Shown: in pieces, positions 16,411 to 29,653 of the stretch
How positions within the stretch are numbered: position 1 is the first letter of the stretch
How the letters are laid out: the number at the start of each line of letters is the position of its first letter
DNA from: an uncultured Candidatus Saccharibacteria bacterium
GTDB lineage: Bacteria > Patescibacteriota > Dojkabacteria > J137
Assembly: GCA_964561155.1 (NCBI GenBank)
Contig: CAZLOI010000003.1
Span: forward strand, 16,832 to 80,831
Length of the DNA: 64,000 nucleotides
Direction: 5' to 3'
Position numbers and translations under genes: made by a program
The notes under the pieces: generated by a model
The model's database searches: none
Told to the model about the DNA's origin: nothing
The model's input: the letters and a program-made list of their open reading frames with translations, nothing else

Positions 16411-16794
16411 TTATCTTATGTATATAAAATAGTATAACCAGTATAGCACTACTGATACTATTTCGAACACGATAGAGAAGATCTGAACAATAACTCTACC
16501 ACCTCGTAGCGTTAGAGCGTTACCGAAGATTTTGAGTAATTGTATGAAGATTGAAAGTACATTAACTATTGTTAGAACAATAACTACTGCAAGGAATGCT
16601 CCTTGTAATCCTAGAGCTGTTTGGGACAATAAAAAGATTGCAGCTATTGGAACTCCTATCGTTCTTAGTAATAATCCAAACATATTTTTTAAGTTTATAT
16701 TTAATCTATCTCTAGTATACACAGCTGTACTAAAAGTTCCAAGGATAAACTTTGTAGAGTATGTGCCTACGACTAACGTGATAAAATTATTCAA
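16411..16794 (-). CDS. Small multi-TM membrane protein
   Basis: 127-aa ORF that is almost entirely hydrophobic. Confidence 0.35.
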   Translation of the reverse strand: MNNFITLVVGTYSTKFILGTFSTAVYTRDRLNINLKNMFGLLLRTIGVPIAAIFLLSQTALGLQGAFLAVVIVLTIVNVLSIFIQLLKIFGNALTLRGGRVIVQIFSIVFEIVSVVLYWLYYFIYIR

Positions 16795-17804
16795 TGCAAT
16801 TCCAGATAAACAACAAAACTAGATACTTTCTTATCGTCCTCATTCTTGGTTTTATTCTATATAGAGTACTTAACGTTGAAAGCTTTCTACAATTTGATCC
16901 AAATGGAATTCAAATCGGATACAAATTAAATGATCTAGTTACTACTTTTAGAAGTATCCTTATACAATCTTTCCCATTCCTGGTAATAGGATCTCTAGTC
17001 TCTGCTATAGTTGCAGCATTTGTTAAAGAAACCTGGCTCTTAAGCATTATTCCAAAGAATAGATTCCTATCTCACTTCCTTGTTTCTCTCCTTGGGTTCC
17101 TAATGCCTGTATGTGAATGCGGGAATGTTCCAGTAGCAAGAAGATTCATGCTACAAGGGTTTAAAGTATCCCACGCTGTTACCTTTCTAATGTCCGCACC
17201 AATTCTAAACCCTATTACTCTTTGGAGCACTTACGAAGCATTTAGAGGTGTGTATCAGAACGATATTATGCTGTGGGCTAGAATAATTGCGTGCTTAGTA
17301 GTAGCAAATGGACTTGGTTTGATAATTAGTTACAAAAGAAATCAATACTCTTTGCTTACAGATTCATTCTACAAAGAAGTATGTGAACATAAGCCGGAAG
17401 AAAAGAAAGACGGATTCCGAAACTTTATTGGAATCTTTTCAAAAGAATTTACAGTGGTAGCTACAACTTTAATTATGGGAGCTGCTATTGCAACACTGTT
17501 CCAATTAATTCCAAGGGATATTATTCTTGGTGTTGGCCAGAATGTAATACTATCTATTTTCGCAATGATTCTATACTCATTTATAATTTCTGTTTGTTCT
17601 AACGTAGATTCATTCCTTGTTATTAGGTATACATCAACATTCACACCAGGTTCAATTGCTGCTTACCTTTCATTTGGTCCATTGATTGATATAAAGGTAC
17701 TGACAATGCTTAGATCATCATTTAAAACAAAAACACTGTTATTCTTTACTGCATTCATATTCCTAACTTCTGTACTAACAGGTTTAATAGTTAACTTACT
17801 GTAA
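16794..17804 (+). CDS. DUF318/UPF0718 family permease
   Basis: Multi-TM protein with MPVCECGNVPVARRF motif typical of the DUF318 permease family. Confidence 0.65.
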   Translation: MQFQINNKTRYFLIVLILGFILYRVLNVESFLQFDPNGIQIGYKLNDLVTTFRSILIQSFPFLVIGSLVSAIVAAFVKETWLLSIIPKNRFLSHFLVSLLGFLMPVCECGNVPVARRFMLQGFKVSHAVTFLMSAPILNPITLWSTYEAFRGVYQNDIMLWARIIACLVVANGLGLIISYKRNQYSLLTDSFYKEVCEHKPEEKKDGFRNFIGIFSKEFTVVATTLIMGAAIATLFQLIPRDIILGVGQNVILSIFAMILYSFIISVCSNVDSFLVIRYTSTFTPGSIAAYLSFGPLIDIKVLTMLRSSFKTKTLLFFTAFIFLTSVLTGLIVNLL

Positions 17805-18610
17805 TGTTTGGATACGTATTTTCGATAATATTTGGTGGTTGGATTCTTTCAGCACATTTCCTACAACGAAATTTAAGTATCTATACATCTGACAGATACT
17901 ATGGATTAATACTGGTTGCTGCTTTCGTATCCGTTTTAATAGGAGTAGCAGGTATATATATAAATCGTAACTCATTCAAACAATCAAGCGACTCAACTAC
18001 ATATCTTGGAACATTCATAGCAACGCTAATCGGCGGACTCATCTTTTCACCAATACTCCTTCTATTCTCTATCTTTATGCTCGTATATTCTCAGTTCAAT
18101 TTGAAAATAAGCATGAACTTTATCTTTGCAGGAGTTCTCTTAACCAGTATCATCTTCCCTTCAAAAGGAATATCTCCGGCACTTGCAGAAGAACGTGCAG
18201 ATGAAATTAATACTGTGAACATTCAAACAGGAGTTAAGATACTTAACAACTTTGCTGTAGCTACAGATGAATACAGTATTGGAGACTGGGCTGCTTCTAT
18301 TTCATACAATCCAGATCCAGAATTCTATAAAGGAAAGAAAGTGAACTTAGATGGATTCATATTTAAACCTTCAAACCTAGAAAGTGATGAATTCTATATT
18401 GCTAGATACACAATTCGTTGTTGTGTTGCAGATGCAGCTCCTACTGGAATAAAGGTGAAGTATGACATTACAGATGAATTCCGAGTTGGAGACTGGGTAC
18501 GAGTTAGCGGTGAATTTGATATAGATGATTCAAAAGGTTACCAAGATATAGTAGTAAAGACTGAAAGTGTAGAAGCAATAGATATTCCAGAGAAACAGTA
18601 TATTTTCTAA
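17804..18610 (+). CDS. TIGR03943 (DUF1980) family protein, usual partner of the DUF318 permease
   Basis: Two N-terminal TMs followed by a soluble domain with ARYTIRCCVADAAP (the conserved CCxxDA motif); start overlaps the stop of the permease gene. Confidence 0.65.
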   Translation: MFGYVFSIIFGGWILSAHFLQRNLSIYTSDRYYGLILVAAFVSVLIGVAGIYINRNSFKQSSDSTTYLGTFIATLIGGLIFSPILLLFSIFMLVYSQFNLKISMNFIFAGVLLTSIIFPSKGISPALAEERADEINTVNIQTGVKILNNFAVATDEYSIGDWAASISYNPDPEFYKGKKVNLDGFIFKPSNLESDEFYIARYTIRCCVADAAPTGIKVKYDITDEFRVGDWVRVSGEFDIDDSKGYQDIVVKTESVEAIDIPEKQYIF

Positions 18611-18613
18611 CAT

Positions 18614-19984
18614 ATGAGAAAAAGCCTTGAGTTAATTACAATTATTGCCCTAATAATATCAACAGTCTTGGTAGGTATTGTATCGCTACAAAGTAGCTTT
18701 AGAGTTTCAGGAACAGAAAGGAATGATGATACAAACGTTATTAGCATCTACTTTAATAAACCAATTCCAAGAGACCTTGATCTTACAAAGTATATAAGCT
18801 CCATTCCTTCTAGCAATCTATCGTTTAACAACGTTGGAAACAGAATTGAGATATTACTGAGTAACCTAAGTTTAGGTGAAACATACAACGTTAAGGTAGA
18901 TAGAAGTCTTCCAAATCTATTCAATGAAACGCTTAATCAAGATACGATTGTAGAATTTAGTACAAAGAATCCAAAGTTTGCATACCTTAGAAACAAAGAT
19001 GGCTCCTTTGCAATACATACGTACGATCTAAAGACACAGGAAGATGTGCTTCAATACGCTACTTCTAATGAAATTAGAAGCTATTCGATTACAAGAAAAT
19101 ATCTACTTGTTGCAGAACTACAAACACTAACAGATATCAAAGTATCTTTAATAGATATAGCTACAAAAGATGTTGTAGAAGAAATAAATTTAAGTCAAAG
19201 CAACTTGTTTAAAGTAGAACTATCAGACAACAATGATTTTTTCATATATATCAGTCAGGATGCAAAGTCAGAAAGCGGTTTTGTAATACCTTTGGGATCA
19301 AGTAAGTTAACGCGTGTAGAAATTGATACTCTCGAAACAATTAACTTTAGCTACAATGAATTTACCAATGATATTCTCGATGCGTATATTACACCAGACA
19401 ACGAGGCTATGCTTCTACGAGGATTTGATTCAACATTCTATATAAAATCATTCCTAACAGATGACGAACCAATTACATTAGCGAAGTTTATAGGGACAGG
19501 TGGCTTTAATAGCAAAGGAAGCCAAATAATCTTTACAGCATTCGATCCAACGCTTGCATTCTCATCATTCCCATATATATCAATATACAACTCAGATCGA
19601 TCAACTGAGGATATAAAGATAGAAGGTTCATACGTAATAGATTCAGTGTTTGGTGGAGATTCTTCGATATACTACGCGAAGAAAGTAAAGGAACTTTTAG
19701 GAACACCAGGTTTCTTTGGAATATATAACTACAAAGACAATGCAGAGAAAGTAGTTATTCAAGATGACAACCTAGATACAAGCTTTGAATTACCTATACT
19801 CAGTCAAGACGACAACTATCTTTGCTACGAATCATATAGCGAAGCTGCAATGATGGATAACAGTAATCAAAGAAGTTTTATTAATCAAAGAAAACCTAAA
19901 AATGCATCTGTAAATATTTTCGAATTTCAAAGAAAAGGAAATGTAATTGAAATCCCGAATTCATATGACTGTAGGTGGATCTAG
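18614..19984 (+). CDS. Hypothetical N-terminally anchored beta-rich extracytoplasmic protein (456 aa)
   Basis: ATG 3 nt after the upstream stop; one N-terminal TM then a long Ser/Thr/Asn-rich beta-type sequence. Confidence 0.45.
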   Translation: MRKSLELITIIALIISTVLVGIVSLQSSFRVSGTERNDDTNVISIYFNKPIPRDLDLTKYISSIPSSNLSFNNVGNRIEILLSNLSLGETYNVKVDRSLPNLFNETLNQDTIVEFSTKNPKFAYLRNKDGSFAIHTYDLKTQEDVLQYATSNEIRSYSITRKYLLVAELQTLTDIKVSLIDIATKDVVEEINLSQSNLFKVELSDNNDFFIYISQDAKSESGFVIPLGSSKLTRVEIDTLETINFSYNEFTNDILDAYITPDNEAMLLRGFDSTFYIKSFLTDDEPITLAKFIGTGGFNSKGSQIIFTAFDPTLAFSSFPYISIYNSDRSTEDIKIEGSYVIDSVFGGDSSIYYAKKVKELLGTPGFFGIYNYKDNAEKVVIQDDNLDTSFELPILSQDDNYLCYESYSEAAMMDNSNQRSFINQRKPKNASVNIFEFQRKGNVIEIPNSYDCRWI

Positions 19985-20019: not shown

Positions 20020-20055
20020 CTTGACACCGATCTTTGGAAATGTTTCAATATACTC
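20020..20055 (+). promoter_or_regulatory. Conserved upstream element (copy A) containing TTGACA, about 65 nt upstream of surface-protein paralog 1
   Basis: CTTGACACCGATCTTTGGAAATGTTTCAATATACTC; near-identical element at 22479. Confidence 0.35.
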
Positions 20056-20121: not shown

Positions 20122-21234
20122 ATGACAACCAATTCACGATCTCTAGTCTCAGCACTAACAATATTATTCGTTCTAGCATCACCTCTACTTGGATTTTCAG
20201 AAGTATCTGCAGCTGCGTTAACAAACATGGCAATTGCTGGTACTGGTATTACAGCATCATCTTCTGCAGTAAGTGCAGCAATTACACCAACTATTTCATT
20301 TCAACTTCAAACAGCAGTAGCATCAACTGATACTATAAGAATACTATTCACAGGTAACGGCTCAAATAACGGAGTCACTGTATCTGGTGCAGGACTTGCA
20401 TCAGCAGATATAACAGTTTCAGGGGCATGCTCGGGAACAGTCACACTTGCTGGTACTCCAATAGCTACATCAACCGATAACCCAACATTGTCATTAACAG
20501 GCATTACAGGAACAACAGGTAGTGTTTGCAATGTAATAATTGCTGCATCTGAGCTATCTACAGACTCTGCTGCTGGAAATGTTTCTGTAGCAGTTGCAAC
20601 AAGCGTTGGAGACTTTGGAGCATTCATGTACTACATTGGAGATGCAAACGATGTTTCTGTAACAGCAATTGTTCCACCAACACTTTCATTCGTATTAAGA
20701 AATGCAGCAGATACTGCTGATTTATCACCTGGAGCTACTACTGGAAACAGAGTATGCAGCCTTGGAATCTTACAACTAGCAACAACTCCTGTACCTAGTA
20801 CTGGTGTTAATGGTTGCCAATACCGAATAAGAATTGCTACAAACGCTACTTCTGGATACGCAGTTAACTATCTATCAGATTCTGCAGATACCTCCGGCGG
20901 AGGCTTCGAAAGACTTGCTAAGAGTACAACTGTAAATATCCCAAATGTTTCAAATGATCCATTAACATCTAACAATGGTTATGGAGCTAGACTAACTCAA
21001 GTTTCAGCTGGACACACTAGAGGCGCTACTTTCACAGGTACTGCTGCTAACTATTTCCCAATAACCGCTAGTACTTCTACCGCAATGTATTCAAGTTCAG
21101 GACCACTAGCTCCTGGTGCTGCTCCAGATACAACTAACACCTCTCTAATTGAGCATGGTGCAAGAATAGCAGCCTCTCAAGAAGTAGGTAACTATGCTCA
21201 CGTTGTTACTTACACAGTCACAGCAACTTTCTAG
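20122..21234 (+). CDS. Secreted Thr/Ser/Ala/Gly-rich surface protein, paralog 1 of 3
   Basis: Signal peptide ...GFSEVSAA/ALT; conserved blocks DSAAGNVS, YYIGDANDVSVTAIVPPTLSFV, NRVCSLGILQLATTP, C-terminus EVGNYAHVVTYTVTATF. Confidence 0.6.
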   Translation: MTTNSRSLVSALTILFVLASPLLGFSEVSAAALTNMAIAGTGITASSSAVSAAITPTISFQLQTAVASTDTIRILFTGNGSNNGVTVSGAGLASADITVSGACSGTVTLAGTPIATSTDNPTLSLTGITGTTGSVCNVIIAASELSTDSAAGNVSVAVATSVGDFGAFMYYIGDANDVSVTAIVPPTLSFVLRNAADTADLSPGATTGNRVCSLGILQLATTPVPSTGVNGCQYRIRIATNATSGYAVNYLSDSADTSGGGFERLAKSTTVNIPNVSNDPLTSNNGYGARLTQVSAGHTRGATFTGTAANYFPITASTSTAMYSSSGPLAPGAAPDTTNTSLIEHGARIAASQEVGNYAHVVTYTVTATF

Positions 21235-21343
21235 TATAAGTATCAATTGATCATCAATTTATTACTAGAAAGACTAGCAAAGTAGTAGTATTAAAATAGA
21301 AAAAGAGTAAACTAAAATTGATATAAAACAACTTATAAAAAAC

Positions 21344-22468
21344 ATGAAAAACTATCAAGGAAAGGCAATTAATACATTAGTAATAGCATTCACATTGCTT
21401 AGTCCATTTACTGGATTCTTTAATGTATCTGCTGCTGCCCTAACTGCAATGAGTATATCTGGAACTGGTATTACAACTAACTCGTCTGCTGTAAGTGCTG
21501 CAATTACTCCAACATTCAACTTCACATTGGCAACAGCTGTTGGACCAACAGAAACAATTCAGATTACTTTCGTTGGTAACGGATCAAATAATGGAATAAC
21601 AGTTTCAGATGTTACAGGTCTTGCCTCAGCAGATATAACAGCAGGCGGAGTATGTTCTGGTTCAGTTACACTAGCTGGATCACCAATAGCTCAAAATACA
21701 GATAATCCAACTCTTTCTATAACTGGAGTTACTTGTACTACAGGTGCTGCAACATTAGCTATAGCAGCTTCCCAAGTATCTACAGATAGTGCTGCTGGTA
21801 ATGTTTCAATAGCAATTCTTGTAACAAGTGCCACTGGTGACTACGGTACATTTCTTTACTACATTGGAGATTCAAACGATGTTTCTGTAACAGCTATTGT
21901 TCCTCCAACTCTATCTTTTGTTATTCGAAATGGTGCAGATACATCTGATCTTTCACCAGGTGCAACAACAGGAAACAGAGTATGTAGTTTGGGTATCTTA
22001 CAATTAGCAACAACACCAACCCCATCCTCAGGTATAAACGGTTGTCAGTATAGATTTAGAATTGCTACTAACGCTACCTCAGGTTACGCTGTTTCATATC
22101 TCTCAAACTCTGCAGATACTGGTGGAGGTGCTTACGATAGACTTGCAAAGAATACAACTGTAAGTATTGCTAATGTCGCTGGTGGAGGAGATCCCTTATC
22201 TTCAAACGCAGGTTACGGAGTAAGATTGACTCAAGTTTCAGCAGGTCATGCAAGAGGTGCAACATTTACAGGTACAGCATCAAACTACTTCATAATTACA
22301 GCTAACACTGCAACTGCAATGTATAATAGTACTGGACCATTGGCTCCAGCTACTGCACCAGACACTACAAATACTTCTCTTATTGAACACGGTACTAGAA
22401 TAACCGCAGCTCAAGAAGTAGGTAACTATTCACACATAGTGACCTATACGGTAACAGCAACCTTCTAA
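21344..22468 (+). CDS. Secreted Thr/Ser/Ala/Gly-rich surface protein, paralog 2 of 3
   Basis: Same architecture and conserved blocks as paralog 1; C-terminus EVGNYSHIVTYTVTATF. Confidence 0.6.
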   Translation: MKNYQGKAINTLVIAFTLLSPFTGFFNVSAAALTAMSISGTGITTNSSAVSAAITPTFNFTLATAVGPTETIQITFVGNGSNNGITVSDVTGLASADITAGGVCSGSVTLAGSPIAQNTDNPTLSITGVTCTTGAATLAIAASQVSTDSAAGNVSIAILVTSATGDYGTFLYYIGDSNDVSVTAIVPPTLSFVIRNGADTSDLSPGATTGNRVCSLGILQLATTPTPSSGINGCQYRFRIATNATSGYAVSYLSNSADTGGGAYDRLAKNTTVSIANVAGGGDPLSSNAGYGVRLTQVSAGHARGATFTGTASNYFIITANTATAMYNSTGPLAPATAPDTTNTSLIEHGTRITAAQEVGNYSHIVTYTVTATF

Positions 22469-22478
22469 ATTCATGCTA

Positions 22479-22514
22479 CTTGACACCGACATTTAGAAAT
22501 GATTGAATGTTAAG
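22479..22514 (+). promoter_or_regulatory. Conserved upstream element (copy B), about 57 nt upstream of paralog 3
   Basis: CTTGACACCGACATTTAGAAATGATTGAATGTTAAG. Confidence 0.35.
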
Positions 22515-22570
22515 TAAGCCGATTTGGAAAATACTATTTACCTATTCCGAAATCTGATACACTAAAATAT

Positions 22571-23671
22571 ATGAAAAAATCAGTTGCACTCTTTACTATA
22601 GTTACGCTCTTCTTAACTCCATTTGCAGGATTCTTTAATGTCTCTGCTGCTGGAATTACATCAATGAGTATCACAGGAACTAATATTACATCTAACTCAT
22701 CTGCAGTCAGTACTGCAATTACACCTACTATAAACTTTACCTTAGCAACAGCTGTTGGACCAACTGAACCAATTCAACTTACATTTGCAGGTAACGGATC
22801 AAACAATGGAATTACAGTCTCAGATGCTGCAGGTCTTGCTTCAGCAGATATTACAGCTGGTGGTGTATGTTCAGGAACAGTCACACTAGCAGGTACTCCA
22901 ATTGCACAAAATACAGATAACCCAACACTTTCACTGACTGGAATAACATGTACAACAGGAGCAGCTACAATAACAATTGCAGTTTCAAATGTTTCAACAG
23001 ATTCTGCAGCTGGAAACCTTTCTGTAGGAATTACTACTGGATCTGGAGACTTCGGATCATTTCTCTACTACATTGGAGATGCTAACGATGTTTCAGTTAC
23101 AGCAATCGTTCCACCTACACTATCATTCGTTTTAAGAAACTCAGCAGATACAGCAGATCTAACACCAGGTACAACTGCAGGTGTTAGAGTTTGTAGTCTT
23201 GGTATCTTACAATTAGCTACAACTCCTGACCCAGGTACTGGTGTTAACGGTTGTATGTATAGATTAAGAATCGCAACAAACGCTACTTCTGGCTATGCAG
23301 TAAGCTATCTATCTGACTCTGCAGACACTCAAGCTGGTGGTTTTGAAAGACTTGCTAAAGATACAGATACAAATATCCCAAATGTTTCTAATGACCCACT
23401 AACAGCAACTAATGGTTATGGTGCTAGATTAACTCAAGTCTCAGCTGGACACACTAGAGGTGCTACCTTCACTGGTACTGCAGCTAACTATTTCCCAATA
23501 ACTGCTAGTACTGCTACAGCAATGTACAATAGCTCAGGTCCATTAGCTCCTGGAAACCCTCCAGACACTACAAATACATCACTTGTAGAACACGGAGCAA
23601 GGATTTCTGCGTCGCAGGAAGTAGGTAACTATGCTCATGTTGTTACATATACTGTAACTGCTACATTCTAA
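22571..23671 (+). CDS. Secreted Thr/Ser/Ala/Gly-rich surface protein, paralog 3 of 3 (mosaic of 2 and 1)
   Basis: N-terminal half matches paralog 2 (FNFTLATAVGPTE, ITAGGVCSG, PIAQNTDNPTLS, TCTTGAAT); C-terminal half matches paralog 1 (GGFERLAK, NIPNVSNDPLT, GYGARLTQVSAGHTRGATFTGTAANYFPITAST). Confidence 0.6.
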   Translation: MKKSVALFTIVTLFLTPFAGFFNVSAAGITSMSITGTNITSNSSAVSTAITPTINFTLATAVGPTEPIQLTFAGNGSNNGITVSDAAGLASADITAGGVCSGTVTLAGTPIAQNTDNPTLSLTGITCTTGAATITIAVSNVSTDSAAGNLSVGITTGSGDFGSFLYYIGDANDVSVTAIVPPTLSFVLRNSADTADLTPGTTAGVRVCSLGILQLATTPDPGTGVNGCMYRLRIATNATSGYAVSYLSDSADTQAGGFERLAKDTDTNIPNVSNDPLTATNGYGARLTQVSAGHTRGATFTGTAANYFPITASTATAMYNSSGPLAPGNPPDTTNTSLVEHGARISASQEVGNYAHVVTYTVTATF

Positions 23672-23765: not shown

Positions 23766-24872
23766 ATGAAGTCTTTAAATATAGGTTTGTTGGTTCTCGT
23801 ACTAACTTCAACCGTTTCCCCATTTATCCAATTAGTATCAGCTCAAGAAGGTGTTTATGGTCCAATTATCAATGCAACTACATTTGAGTATGTTGTAGAG
23901 AAAGGTTCGACTATTACCGATTCATTTGAAGTACGGCATGACTATCAGGATGCAAATTTTATTGCAACTTTCTACCCAACAGCTGTAGATTTCACTGCAG
24001 ATGGAGAAAGTGGAACACCTGTATTCCTAGACAAGACAAGATCTAAGGGTAAATCATCATTAGAAGACTGGATTACACCAATAACAAGATCTATTACAAT
24101 ATCTGAACTTGGAGATACAGCACTTGTTGAATTTGAAATTACCGTCCCAATCGATGCAGAACCTGGATCATATACAGCAGGTCTTTTGCTTTCAGACTCA
24201 GAGTTTGACCCTCAAGCAGGACCAAACCAAGTAGCATTGGAATCAAGATTAGGTCCGTTAATCTTTGTAACAGTACCTGGAAACATTCAATCAAATCTAG
24301 AAGTTCTTAGCTTTGAAGCTGTAGATATATATGGAAATGCTCCTTTCTTAGGAATTTTTGAATACCACCCTATCGATTTCAAGCTTACACTAAAGAATGG
24401 TGGTAACGTATACATGACACCAGGAGGAACAATCTCTGTTCACCAAGGTGATCTTGCAAAGTCATCTTTTGTTATTCCAAATCTAAATGAAGACAAAGGT
24501 TCTATTTTAGCTGGTACAACTAGATCATATTTGAATCAATGGAATGATTCTGCATTTAGAATGAAATCTGAAATAGATACCAGCACAGGTCAAACAAACT
24601 ATAGCTTCGATTTCCACCCTGAATCATTAAACAAGATACGAGTTGGTAGATATACAGCTACTCTGCAACTATTCTATCGAGACAAAGCTACTGGTGAGAA
24701 TATTAGAATGGATTATGATATTCATTTCTGGATTATTCCTTGGAAAGCAATCCTATTAATCATTGCCCTAATCGTAGGATACTTCTTAATCAAGAAAGCA
24801 ATTAGGAACAGAAGAAACTCTCTTAAGAAATCTAAGAACGGACAGAGAATGATTGGTCAACGTGTTGTCTAA
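23766..24872 (+). CDS. DUF916-like cell-surface protein with C-terminal TM anchor and basic tail
   Basis: Signal peptide, about 300-aa beta-rich ectodomain, TM WKAILLIIALIVGYFLI, then KKAIRNRRNSLKKSK. Confidence 0.45.
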   Translation: MKSLNIGLLVLVLTSTVSPFIQLVSAQEGVYGPIINATTFEYVVEKGSTITDSFEVRHDYQDANFIATFYPTAVDFTADGESGTPVFLDKTRSKGKSSLEDWITPITRSITISELGDTALVEFEITVPIDAEPGSYTAGLLLSDSEFDPQAGPNQVALESRLGPLIFVTVPGNIQSNLEVLSFEAVDIYGNAPFLGIFEYHPIDFKLTLKNGGNVYMTPGGTISVHQGDLAKSSFVIPNLNEDKGSILAGTTRSYLNQWNDSAFRMKSEIDTSTGQTNYSFDFHPESLNKIRVGRYTATLQLFYRDKATGENIRMDYDIHFWIIPWKAILLIIALIVGYFLIKKAIRNRRNSLKKSKNGQRMIGQRVV

Positions 24873-24929: not shown

Positions 24930-26495
24930 ATGAAGAGCAATTTCTATAAATTTAAAATCACATTCGCAATTATTTTCGGTACCCTACTTTCTATATCCCC
25001 ATTCAATCCAGTTAGATTAACAAATCCTAAAGATACGCTTGAGGTTTGTGCTCAGGATATTGGCTGGGAGGACTTAGGAACTGGTGTAAGTTGTGTTCCA
25101 AACTATTCAAGCTGTGGTTCAGGATTTAACATACTTGAAAGTGCTCTAGGAGCTAGATATGTAAATGGAATATCTCAATCACAACTTATTTCAAGTCTAG
25201 AAGCTAGTTATGGCACTGATATCAATCGAATTTGTACAACAGAGAACTTTTCTGACATAACTATACGTTGGATGACTGGGGGTGAATACAATGCTGCTCA
25301 GACGCAGAATATACCTAGCGTTGGTGATACACTTTCTGGTAAAGCAATACCTAGATTTTGTCCTGCAGGCTGGCAGGCACAGATTGGAACACAAAGATTC
25401 AACTTTGCTACTGGATACCCTAGTGGATGTTGTCCAACAGGATTTAAATTTGTAAACGTTGCAGAGCAACAAGACCCCAGTGCTTCACAAAATGGAGTTT
25501 GTTGTCGACTTCCTACTGTTTCAGGAGTAGGTACGCCTCACAAATATGCAACATCTGAATTTGGAGGTACGCTTGAAATTGCAGGCTGTTACGACGAAAA
25601 TGAAAACTTGATCTATGCAGTAGATGATGCTGAAAGCCAATCACCTTCCAGAGACTACAGTACTCTTGCTGATGCTATAGAAGCTGCTGAAGAAGGAAAT
25701 ATTATTGTTGGAATTAAGCAGACTGCAGGAGGGTACAACCCAAGTGTTAGTTTTGCAGAATCAAGTGGAAATAGCACAACAGTAGTTAAGCCACAACTTG
25801 GATTAGGCTTTGGGTTGGCATTCCCTGGGAATATAAACACTATTGCAGAAAGCAAACTTAGTAAAGAAAGATGTAGAAATAATGTTGGTTGTTTTATCTC
25901 GTCTGCAGGCATAGTGTCACCTAGAAATATAGTTGGCAGCGATGGTGTTAATGTTTTTGATAATCCTAGTAATAGCTCACTGACTTGTGAGAGATGCTTC
26001 AGTCCTGGAGAACCAGTAGAAGTTGATACTACAACGAACCTTCTAAGTATTTGTGATCCAACAGCACCGAATGCAATTCGAGAACAACCACTATGTAACT
26101 CCTCAGTTATAGACACCATAGCTTGTCTTGGTGGATCCAATTCTACTAGTCAAAATGCTAACTCCGATGGAGTCGGTAGTACAAACTACGATCTTTGTTG
26201 TGCTTGTAGAGTACAAGGAGGCGTGTGGACTGGAATAGGTTGTACCGATACAACTCCTGCAGGCTTAATTACAGGCCTGATCCGAATCGTCTACGGAGTC
26301 ATGGGTGGTGTTGCTTTAATCATGCTAATCTATGCAGGTATTATGTACCAAACAGGAAATGAAGCTAACGTAAAGCAAGCTAGAGAGAGTATTATAAGAA
26401 CTATCACGGGATTAATCGTACTAACATTTAGTATCTTGATATTAAGGATCATTGGAATCAATGTTCTAGATATATTACCTTCTGGGAGTATTTAA
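24930..26495 (+). CDS. Cys-rich secreted protein (about 30 Cys) with C-terminal two-helix membrane hairpin resembling VirB2/TrbC pilin topology
   Basis: N-terminal signal/TM; CC, CxxC and CxC clusters (GCCPTGFKF, GVCCRLP, LCCACRV) with no CxxCH; C-terminus LIRIVYGVMGGVALIMLIYAGIMY-QTGNEANVKQARESIIR-TITGLIVLTFSILIL. Confidence 0.5.
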   Translation: MKSNFYKFKITFAIIFGTLLSISPFNPVRLTNPKDTLEVCAQDIGWEDLGTGVSCVPNYSSCGSGFNILESALGARYVNGISQSQLISSLEASYGTDINRICTTENFSDITIRWMTGGEYNAAQTQNIPSVGDTLSGKAIPRFCPAGWQAQIGTQRFNFATGYPSGCCPTGFKFVNVAEQQDPSASQNGVCCRLPTVSGVGTPHKYATSEFGGTLEIAGCYDENENLIYAVDDAESQSPSRDYSTLADAIEAAEEGNIIVGIKQTAGGYNPSVSFAESSGNSTTVVKPQLGLGFGLAFPGNINTIAESKLSKERCRNNVGCFISSAGIVSPRNIVGSDGVNVFDNPSNSSLTCERCFSPGEPVEVDTTTNLLSICDPTAPNAIREQPLCNSSVIDTIACLGGSNSTSQNANSDGVGSTNYDLCCACRVQGGVWTGIGCTDTTPAGLITGLIRIVYGVMGGVALIMLIYAGIMYQTGNEANVKQARESIIRTITGLIVLTFSILILRIIGINVLDILPSGSI

Positions 26496-28705: not shown

Positions 28706-29653
28706 TTAGTTACTAGGTATCATTTTGTAAGATTTTGTTCTTCTTTGCAACTTCTTCTTCAAGAATCTCGATAATACATACAGAATAACAACAGATGCAG
28801 TTCCTCCAGCGACTGTATAGAAGGTTCTGTTCTGAGTTGGGATATCAATTCTAAATACTTGTGACTTTCCAGTGAACGTATCAGTTAGCTGAAGCTCCAC
28901 AACTTTGTTAGGTGAAAGAACTGTATCCAAAAAATCAAACTCATATTTAAAGCTCTCTTCAACAACCTTGTCTGGAGAAAGGTATCTTAGATTTTCATTG
29001 ATAACTTTCTGAAGATATACATTTCCTCGGTTATCTATAACCTGAACTCTAGCTAATATCTTACTTGGGAATAATCCTGAGTTCTTGTATCCAATATTGA
29101 TATCAATTATTCCATCGTATTGGCTTTCATCTGTATAATCAAAGCTATACATTTCAATTTCAGATTCGTATGATTGATTGCCAGAAACGAATAGATTAAT
29201 TCTATGCCCAATAGCAGCCTTAAGTGTTGTACCCTCCCCTAATCCAATATTTCTAAGAATAATTAGTGGAACATAGAATCCATCATTTAAATTGGCAGGA
29301 ACTATGAAGTTAAAATATATTAGCTGTTCTTCGTTAGGTAATACAATGAATTCACGAACACTTGATTGAAGAAAGCTCTCTTCATCACTTAATTCTCTAA
29401 TCTCTTCACCATATACTTCACCAAAGCTTAGTTCAAACCCGAATGCTGTATCGTAGTTATTCTTAAGAATAAAACTTCCAGTAACAGTTTCTCCTTGCTT
29501 TGCTCTTATCTCTGTTTCAAATGGATACATACTCATACCTTCAATCTCTTGAGCCTGAATTGGGTTTAGATTGGAAAACAATGATGAAGATATCAGAACA
29601 AGGATCACGAAAAGCGATCTTAGAAGTAATCCTTTAGATAGAAATCTTTGCAT
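28706..29653 (-). CDS. DUF916-like cell-surface protein with C-terminal TM anchor, distant paralog of 23766..24872
   Basis: Signal peptide, beta-rich ectodomain with colinear motifs (FETEIRAKQGETVTGSF versus FEYVVEKGSTITDSF), C-terminal TM and KKKLQRRTK tail. Confidence 0.45.
   Translation of the reverse strand: MQRFLSKGLLLRSLFVILVLISSSLFSNLNPIQAQEIEGMSMYPFETEIRAKQGETVTGSFILKNNYDTAFGFELSFGEVYGEEIRELSDEESFLQSSVREFIVLPNEEQLIYFNFIVPANLNDGFYVPLIILRNIGLGEGTTLKAAIGHRINLFVSGNQSYESEIEMYSFDYTDESQYDGIIDINIGYKNSGLFPSKILARVQVIDNRGNVYLQKVINENLRYLSPDKVVEESFKYEFDFLDTVLSPNKVVELQLTDTFTGKSQVFRIDIPTQNRTFYTVAGGTASVVILYVLSRFLKKKLQRRTKSYKMIPSN

Follow-up and report, generated by a model that had tools for sequence, protein, structure and literature searches.

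Three mosaic pilin-like paralogs and a membrane-anchored chaperone point to a divergent Pam-type pilus locus in a Dojkabacteria-like genome

Introduction

Three adjacent genes at positions 20122 to 23671 of a 64,000-nt stretch of DNA (hereafter the window; contig CAZLOI010000003.1, positions 16,832 to 80,831) from an uncultured bacterium of the Dojkabacteria lineage encode similar, secreted proteins rich in small residues. What do such proteins build, and why do parts of the third copy resemble the first gene while other parts resemble the second? A first-pass annotation, made from the DNA letters without database searches, had proposed a recombining family of surface antigens, pilins or S-layer-like proteins. 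The surroundings of the array are ordinary chromosome (GC 34-39%) with tRNA genes, tRNA synthetases and a PBP2-type transpeptidase. The analyses described here make it likely that the three gene products are the major subunits, secreted by Sec, of a Pam-type pilus, that is, a chaperone-assisted, usher-less fibre assembled by donor-strand exchange in a bacterium of the candidate phyla radiation (CPR, or Patescibacteria) with a monoderm cell wall. Among the options offered by the first-pass annotation, pilin is the one that fits best.

The three-gene array

The genes are co-directional open reading frames (ORFs) on the + strand: paralog 1 (p1; 20122..21234, 370 aa), paralog 2 (p2; 21344..22468, 374 aa) and paralog 3 (p3; 22571..23671, 366 aa). 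They are 73-77% identical to one another at the amino acid level and 70-74% identical at the nucleotide level. T, S, A, G, N and V together make up 63-65% of the residues of each protein, Trp is absent from the composition count of all three, and each has four Cys and several N-x-S/T sequons. The N-termini resemble Sec signal peptides ending in VSAA, and in the C-terminal sequence EVGNY(A/S)H(V/I)VTYTVTATF only the two bracketed positions vary in the alignment. The gene lengths and direction, the bias to small residues, the lack of Trp and the C-terminal sequence had been read correctly beforehand, and the designation as secreted surface-protein paralogs is supported. The earlier claim of two conserved Cys pairs is accurate for one pair: that of the C-terminal domain (C212/C232 in p1) is invariant here and in 103 family members, whereas the second Cys of the N-terminal domain lies at a shifted position in p1 (..GSVCNV..) relative to p2 and p3 (..TCTTG..). 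A Pfam scan and a PDB sequence search with p1, p2 and p3 returned no match.

Relationship to Pam pilins

Pam pili were described in Candidatus (Ca.) Mycosynbacter amalyticus, a CPR parasite, for which structures of the pilins PamA and PamB were obtained by cryo-electron microscopy (Troman et al. 2026, bioRxiv 10.64898/2026.03.03.709456). In these fibres each subunit inserts its linker into the C-terminal groove of its neighbor, and it is the linker and groove that are most strongly conserved among the pilins (10.64898/2026.03.03.709456). PamC and PamD, which are PapD-like and carry a C-terminal transmembrane (TM) anchor, are the proposed chaperones (10.64898/2026.03.03.709456). The system is represented by the NCBIfam models NF058578, NF058579 and NF058581, the last of which (CPR_Pam_pilin_C, Pam pilus system pilin subunit) derives from the same preprint. 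All three array proteins match NF058581 over approximately their last 135 residues, with 19.6-20.4 bits and E-values of 4e-4 to 8e-4 (19.6 bits for p1).

The relatives of the array proteins extend this match. A word-indexed search recovered 22 relatives, including one with the label Ca. Dojkabacteria, and an exhaustive profile search recovered 976 clusters (50% identity) at E <= 1e-3, 444 of them at E <= 1e-10. Representatives were drawn from members of 330-410 aa; 80 of these 103 sequences match NF058581 at E <= 1e-3 (best E 7.5e-14), and none of the 103 matches WxL or any other informative family in Pfam. Additionally, a bona fide pam operon (L005) was recovered by way of its chaperone, and encodes a PamA-like pilin (62 bits), a PamB-like pilin (157 bits on NF058581), PamR (377 bits) and two chaperones. 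The profile of the array family aligns with this PamB-like pilin over the full length, through the N-terminal domain, linker and C-terminal domain, with 48 bits. Shared landmarks, given as family profile and PamB-like pilin, are VtAtVaPtLsFaIrn and VNIETQVPPMLVFCLAQ, TNAxxGY and TNATAGF, and GnYsqtvtYtV and GVYTTTITYIA. These sequence comparisons suggest that the three pilins most likely belong to the CPR Pam pilin superfamily, as a divergent branch of it, and not to a wholly new kind of system.

The predicted fold follows the domain order of the Pam pilins. In the AlphaFold2 (AF2) model of p1, built with the family alignment (predicted local distance difference test, pLDDT, 85), strands occupy aa 34-172, followed by a low-confidence flexible stretch (aa 173-187), a lone strand (aa 188-194) and a beta-rich C-terminal domain (aa 195-370). 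Accordingly, p1 was divided into a signal peptide (aa 1-30), an N-terminal beta-sandwich (aa 31-172) and a C-terminal immunoglobulin (Ig)-like domain (aa 195-370), with the linker or donor strand at aa 176-194 (nt 20647-20703, +), where family conservation peaks. Information content over the 103 sequences is 2.52 bits in the linker and 2.61 in the last strand, compared with 1.54 in the N-terminal domain, so that conservation within the family is strongest in the linker and the C-terminal strands, as it is in Pam pilins. The conserved linker strand reads ..VPPTLSFV[L/I]RN (NDVSVTAIVPPTLSFV[L/I]RN), and C212, C232 and Y234 do not vary within the family. The four Cys of each protein are predicted from sequence to be paired, another trait of Pam pilins.

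Other kinds of surface structure were considered and set aside. Sortase-dependent pilins are ruled out, as the proteins end in ...VTYTVTATF with neither an LPXTG motif nor a TM tail. Type IV pilins are likewise ruled out by the absence of a prepilin motif (G|F/M-T-L-x-E), by the classical Sec N-termini and by the all-beta mature protein of the AF2 model. The S-layer reading, one of the options raised previously, was rejected on sequence features, and Pfam scans of the three proteins and their 103 relatives gave no S-layer domain.

Some family members are much larger. In P0064, P0090, P0095 and P0097 (850-3368 aa, all from metagenomes), the entire pilin module is C-terminal, behind Big_1/invasin, fn3, Laminin_G_3 or FG-GAP domains. 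These fusions are candidate tip adhesins and parallel the "large WxL" proteins; the adhesin domains fit tip or adhesin subunits and an adhesive function. Members of the family are also found on contigs of metagenome-assembled genomes (MAGs) labelled Gammaproteobacteria, "bacterium" and Ca. Methylomirabilis (L021, which is CAYQCK010000004.1, L018 and P0021).

The membrane-anchored chaperone and the WxL question

The gene that follows p3 (23766..24872, +) encodes a 368-aa protein with a signal peptide, two beta-sandwich (Ig-like) domains and a C-terminal TM helix at aa 326-367. Its AF2 model (pLDDT 78) consists of the two beta-sandwich domains and a long C-terminal helix, and resembles CfaA, SafB, FimC and EfmWxLIP1. 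In sequence, the protein resembles the two chaperones of the L005 pam operon (70.7 and 41.3 bits). Nine of its 23 sequence relatives match Pfam PF06030 (WxLIP_PGBD, formerly DUF916), and its family profile matches an annotated DUF916/DUF3324 protein from a WxL cluster on an Enterococcus faecium plasmid with 46.1 bits. A PDB profile search places EfmWxLIP1 among the top matches, weakly (E 0.06). The chaperone is homologous both to the chaperones of pam operons and to the DUF916/DUF3324 WxL-interacting protein (WxLIP) of Firmicutes. The array is thus adjoined by a PapD-like chaperone with a C-terminal TM helix, as in Pam systems, which is at the same time a WxLIP-type protein (DUF916, DUF3324 and TM helix), as in WxL clusters.

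A second, divergent chaperone-like gene (28706..29653, -) encodes a 315-aa protein that has a signal peptide and, at its C-terminus, a TM helix; the chaperone profile (A3) matches it with 33.7 bits. It is syntenic in the related loci L001, L008 and L010, and the presence of two chaperones recalls the PamC/PamD pair. Within the first chaperone gene, a 34-nt segment (24449-24482) is 76% identical to the segment coding for the linker strand (DLAKSSFVIPN versus VPPTLSFVIRN). Mimicry of the donor strand by the chaperone was considered for this segment, which is short and lies in domain 2, and the likeness was treated as probable chance.

The similarity to WxLIP bears on an earlier remark that the C-terminus of the array proteins resembles, but is not, the distal motif of WxL domains. 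In its negative part that remark was right. The pilins lack Trp, and neither they nor their 103 relatives match PF13731. In hhalign comparisons of the pilin family with WxL proteins the probability was <=3% in all modes (full profiles; C-terminal domain in local, low maximum-accuracy-threshold and global alignment), and a hidden Markov model of the pilin C-terminal motif scored WxL proteins no better than shuffled sequences. The comparison set consisted of the WxL protein of the E. faecium cluster and 16 relatives, all with PF13731; this alignment is narrow (16 Enterococcus-type sequences, effective number of sequences ~2.8), which limits the sensitivity of the comparison. By the tests applied, the pilins are not WxL proteins, and sequence homology is demonstrable only for the helper proteins. 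Because the chaperone is homologous to WxLIP, the real basis of the hint at WxL proteins lies one gene downstream.

In the AF2 predictions of the WxL literature, the WxL domain takes up a strand of WxLIP, formally a case of donor-strand complementation. Neither the WxL literature searched nor the Pam preprint draws a link between the two systems. The structure of an E. faecium WxL domain protein bound to EfmWxLIP1 has been solved and is available as PDB 9i25 (chains A and C) and 9i1y (released January 2026). In the WxL comparator on E. faecium plasmid pDMEA1 (L007, 3220-4587), a lytic polysaccharide monooxygenase with fn3 repeats is encoded between the WxL/LPXTG genes and the WxLIP gene.

Related loci and origin of the triplication

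Eighteen related loci were surveyed among GTDB species representatives, found with the 22-sequence alignment. They derive from MAGs of Dojkabacteria, SR1, Uhrbacteria, Parcubacteria and other Patescibacteria. In 17 of the 18, a chaperone homolog lies directly downstream of the pilin gene on the same strand, a pairing from which pilin and chaperone appear to be a conserved functional unit.

The same three-gene array, in the same context, is present in a related metagenomic genome (L001-L004), where its genes are denoted g1, g2 and g3. The next-closest relatives, L008 and L010, are ~60% identical and carry one pilin gene in the same block, with the order pilin, chaperone, 521-aa protein, ferric reductase, Na/Ca exchanger and second chaperone. 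Because these two carry a single pilin gene in the same synteny, gene order indicates that the triplication is lineage-specific and occurred after the split from the single-copy relatives. Other array types are found elsewhere. For instance, a Dojkabacteria MAG has two consecutive pilin-chaperone pairs (L013, 5389-10417), and an SR1 MAG (L020, 7572-13772) encodes one pilin of 332 aa, a chaperone and two longer pilin-like proteins (511 and 520 aa).

Mosaic history of the array

The first-pass annotation had described p3 as a clean mosaic, with an N-terminal half like p2 and a C-terminal half like p1, and attributed this to recombination or gene conversion within the array. The listed paralog-specific blocks are all present as written in the ORFs and the alignment. 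However, the blocks GGFERLAK and SNDPLT, which had been called specific to p1, are also found in the array of the related genome, and it is p2 that is the odd one out.

Breakpoint testing agrees that identity is not uniform along the genes. A maximum chi-square test on the three sequences places a breakpoint in p3 near nt 447 (aa 149; permutation p = 2e-4), with 38 p1-like versus 86 p2-like sites to its left and 98 versus 53 to its right. Trees of the separate domains were built from six genes (p1-p3 and g1-g3) and rooted with the single-copy genes of L008 and L010. In the N-terminal domain, p1 and its ortholog g1 are split from all other copies with 100% bootstrap support, and p3 groups with p2 and ortholog g3. 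In the distal C-terminal domain, p2 is placed with the outgroups, apart from the rest (95%), and p1 and p3 are together (75%); of the six genes, p2 here lies nearest to the single-copy outgroups. All copies are about equally distant from the outgroups (0.37-0.42 in the N-terminal domain and 0.38-0.45 in the distal C-terminal domain), an argument against a rate artifact. In nucleotide comparisons of the linker and proximal C-terminal domain, g1, g2 and g3 cluster by genome (87.5%), which is a sign of concerted evolution. Similarly, g1 and g2 reach 91% nucleotide identity in one 120-nt window, compared with 71-74% for orthologs.

A putative old gene-conversion tract was delimited between p1 (20844..21078, +) and p3 (23281..23515, +) by identity contrast and a segment test. 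The two genes are 83.4% identical in the tract (nucleotide) versus 69.7% upstream of it, and the orthologs p1 and g1 are 68.5% identical in the same tract. Its sites are paralog-like in 42 cases and ortholog-like in 7 (permutation p = 0.003). The pairwise homoplasy index (PHI) test over all six genes gives p = 0.0005. Incongruence of the domain trees, the maximum chi-square test and PHI together support exchange among the paralogs of the array by recombination or gene conversion. For each pair of paralogs the longest identical run measures 20-22 nt, and nucleotide identity in the donor-like segments is 80-83%; the exchanges are therefore old. On the sequence evidence, a mosaic history is supported, but an ancient one. 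In view of the mixed site counts and the short identical runs, p3 is neither a clean nor a recent mosaic.

Weighing the explanations

Several points weigh against reading the array as a mosaic set of Pam-type pilins. The NF058581 scores of the three proteins lie far under the curated 55-bit cutoff of that model. The likeness to the PamA and PamB structures consists of sequence and AF2 layout, and it is from homology with these structures that polymerization, donor-strand exchange and chaperone binding are inferred. No match to PamT (NF058579) or PamR (NF058578) was found among nine neighboring ORFs. With respect to the mosaic, the signal at synonymous sites is weak (p = 0.17 in the three-sequence test and 0.04-0.9 in the segment tests), PHI at third codon positions gives p = 0.09, and the signal comes mainly from first and second codon positions. 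Because of this weak synonymous signal, domain-specific selection or saturation could account for part of the mosaic pattern. The stronger form of that argument, in which the apparent mosaic is due entirely to unequal rates or convergent selection across the domains of three anciently duplicated genes, draws on the same non-significant or marginal tests and is unlikely, though it retains some weight. Against it, no long-branch artifact is evident and the basal paralog switches from p1 (100%) to p2 (95%) between domains. Moreover, the clustering of the related genome's genes in the linker and proximal C-terminal domain is a classic signature of concerted evolution, and the peak of identity between g1 and g2 stands well above that of the orthologs.

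Two further explanations concern what the proteins do. They could be CPR counterparts of the proteins of Firmicute WxL clusters, bound non-covalently to the wall, presented by a WxLIP-type membrane protein and non-polymerizing. The homology of the helper favors this account, whereas the pilins themselves give no sign of WxL ancestry in the comparisons above; it is considered improbable. Alternatively, they could be a diversifying surface-antigen or S-layer-like family, with tandem copies kept for ongoing antigenic variation by frequent recombination. The tandem paralogs, the variable N-terminal domain and the mosaic relationships are as expected for such a family, as are the composition rich in T, S, A and G and the several sequons. 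However, the absence of any identical tract longer than 22 nt and the modest identity of the donor-like segments indicate old exchanges and not active switching, so that active antigenic variation is not indicated. The locus has no silent cassettes, invertible elements or recombinase, the proteins lack S-layer domains, and the fold and the neighboring gene indicate a chaperone-assembled fibre. Ongoing antigenic variation is thus very improbable, and subunits of a Pam-type pilus are the preferred reading.

Proposed assembly and implications

Each subunit would comprise a variable N-terminal beta-sandwich, a conserved linker and an incomplete Ig-like C-terminal domain ending in GNYxHxVTYTVTATF. 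The three pilins are most likely exported by Sec. By homology with the Pam system, the membrane-anchored chaperone would cap the groove of the incomplete C-terminal domain. The conserved linker of the next subunit, as in PamA and PamB, would then replace the chaperone by donor-strand exchange, and a linear fibre would grow from the monoderm membrane without an usher. After the triplication, the copies would have exchanged segments, giving their N-terminal and C-terminal domains different histories; such exchange would have uncoupled the history of the variable N-terminal domain, which is probably surface-exposed, from that of the assembly domain.

PamA and PamB are reported to co-polymerize in blocks (10.64898/2026.03.03.709456), and Pam pili are thought to make the first contact with the host cell, in the one cultivated Saccharimonadia parasite (10.64898/2026.03.03.709456). 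By analogy, it is likely that the paralogs either co-polymerize in blocks or provide alternative binding or antigenic surfaces for contact with host cells. Triplication combined with domain reshuffling would be expected of a pilin whose exposed N-terminal domain adapts to hosts and whose assembly domain stays compatible. If the assignment is correct, a divergent, simpler version of Pam, with one type of pilin and one membrane-anchored chaperone, is widespread in other CPR classes, at loci that sit under current annotation thresholds.

Promoter-like elements and neighboring genes

A promoter-like element (CTTGACA, a 17-nt spacer and TGnTTCAAT) lies upstream of p1 (20020..20049, +), and a second copy of the same motif lies upstream of p3 (22479..22508, +); these are two copies in the window versus 0 expected by chance. 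Each is followed by a leader of ~60-70 nt. Similar TTGACA-N17-extended -10 elements (TGnTT[C/G]AAT) precede g1 and g3 in L001, where they sit upstream of 8885 and 11217, and the single pilin genes in L008 and L010. Because the element precedes p1 and p3 but not p2, it suggests two transcription units, with the promoter function itself inferred from the motif. In this arrangement p2 would probably be co-transcribed with p1; in the related genome, g1 and g2 are 3 nt apart.

Directly after the chaperone gene, a Cys-rich secreted protein of 521 aa is encoded (24930..26495, +), with a C-terminal T4SS_pilin (VirB2/TrbC-like) membrane domain (PF18895, 26.9 bits). It is syntenic in L001, L008 and L010 but not in distant loci. 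It could be an anchor or unrelated, and its membership in the system is uncertain. The region upstream of the array (16794-19984, +) encodes an ArsP_1 permease, a TIGR03943/DUF1980 permease subunit and a secreted protein of 456 aa that was assigned to no family. These were rejected as parts of the system, being syntenic in L001 and not in L008 or L010. In phmmer searches, no ORF of the window matched the PamR-like protein of L005 or its PamB-like pilin that matches the PamT model; genes for PamT and PamR could lie elsewhere in the genome.

Comparison with known systems

Donor-strand fibres are also formed in monoderms by TasA-like proteins and by archaeal bundling or thread pilins. The array pilins showed no sequence similarity or Pfam match to these, and the TasA-like and archaeal thread systems have no PapD-like or WxLIP-like chaperone gene, unlike the array. 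The classical and archaic chaperone-usher pili of Gram-negatives (Pap, Fim, CFA/I, Saf and Csu) differ in several respects. Here there is no outer membrane and no usher, and none of the flanking ORFs has an usher-like Pfam match. The chaperone is membrane-anchored instead of soluble, the donor strand is an interdomain linker instead of an N-terminal extension, the subunits carry an additional domain at the N-terminus, and sequence homology is undetectable with Pfam.

The closest parallel is the Pam system itself. Both have paired Cys, a linker and C-terminal domain that are the most conserved regions, an adjoining PapD-like chaperone with a C-terminal TM helix, and no usher; both are largely restricted to CPR and have several pilin paralogs per locus. 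The differences are a remote sequence similarity (~20 bits versus the 55-bit NF058581 cutoff) and a minimal locus, in which the PamT tip, PamR anchor and PamE are not recognizable within the 64 kb. The array pilins are 73-77% identical, whereas PamA (55 kDa) and PamB (39 kDa) are very different. The organism is Dojkabacteria-like here and a member of Saccharimonadia there, and no ATP synthase was found among 19 ORFs of the window scanned against Pfam.

WxL clusters of Firmicutes combine WxL proteins with WxLIP, which consists of DUF916/DUF3324 and a TM helix (Hassan et al. 2023, PMC10599100). They differ from the array in their secreted partners: the pilins have no Trp, WxL motifs, PF13731 match or profile-profile similarity, no LPXTG partner gene is present at the array, and the WxL proteins, described as bound to peptidoglycan, are not known as filaments. 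In contrast, the helper is homologous and of the same architecture (signal peptide, two Ig-like domains and C-terminal TM helix). In both cases its gene stands beside one or more genes for small secreted beta-rich proteins, and large variants with N-terminal adhesin domains exist. The predicted insertion of a WxLIP strand also resembles donor-strand complementation. The homology of chaperone and WxLIP is therefore a testable bridge between a structurally solved pilus system and enigmatic Gram-positive surface proteins with roles in adhesion and virulence, and is the lead most worth following.

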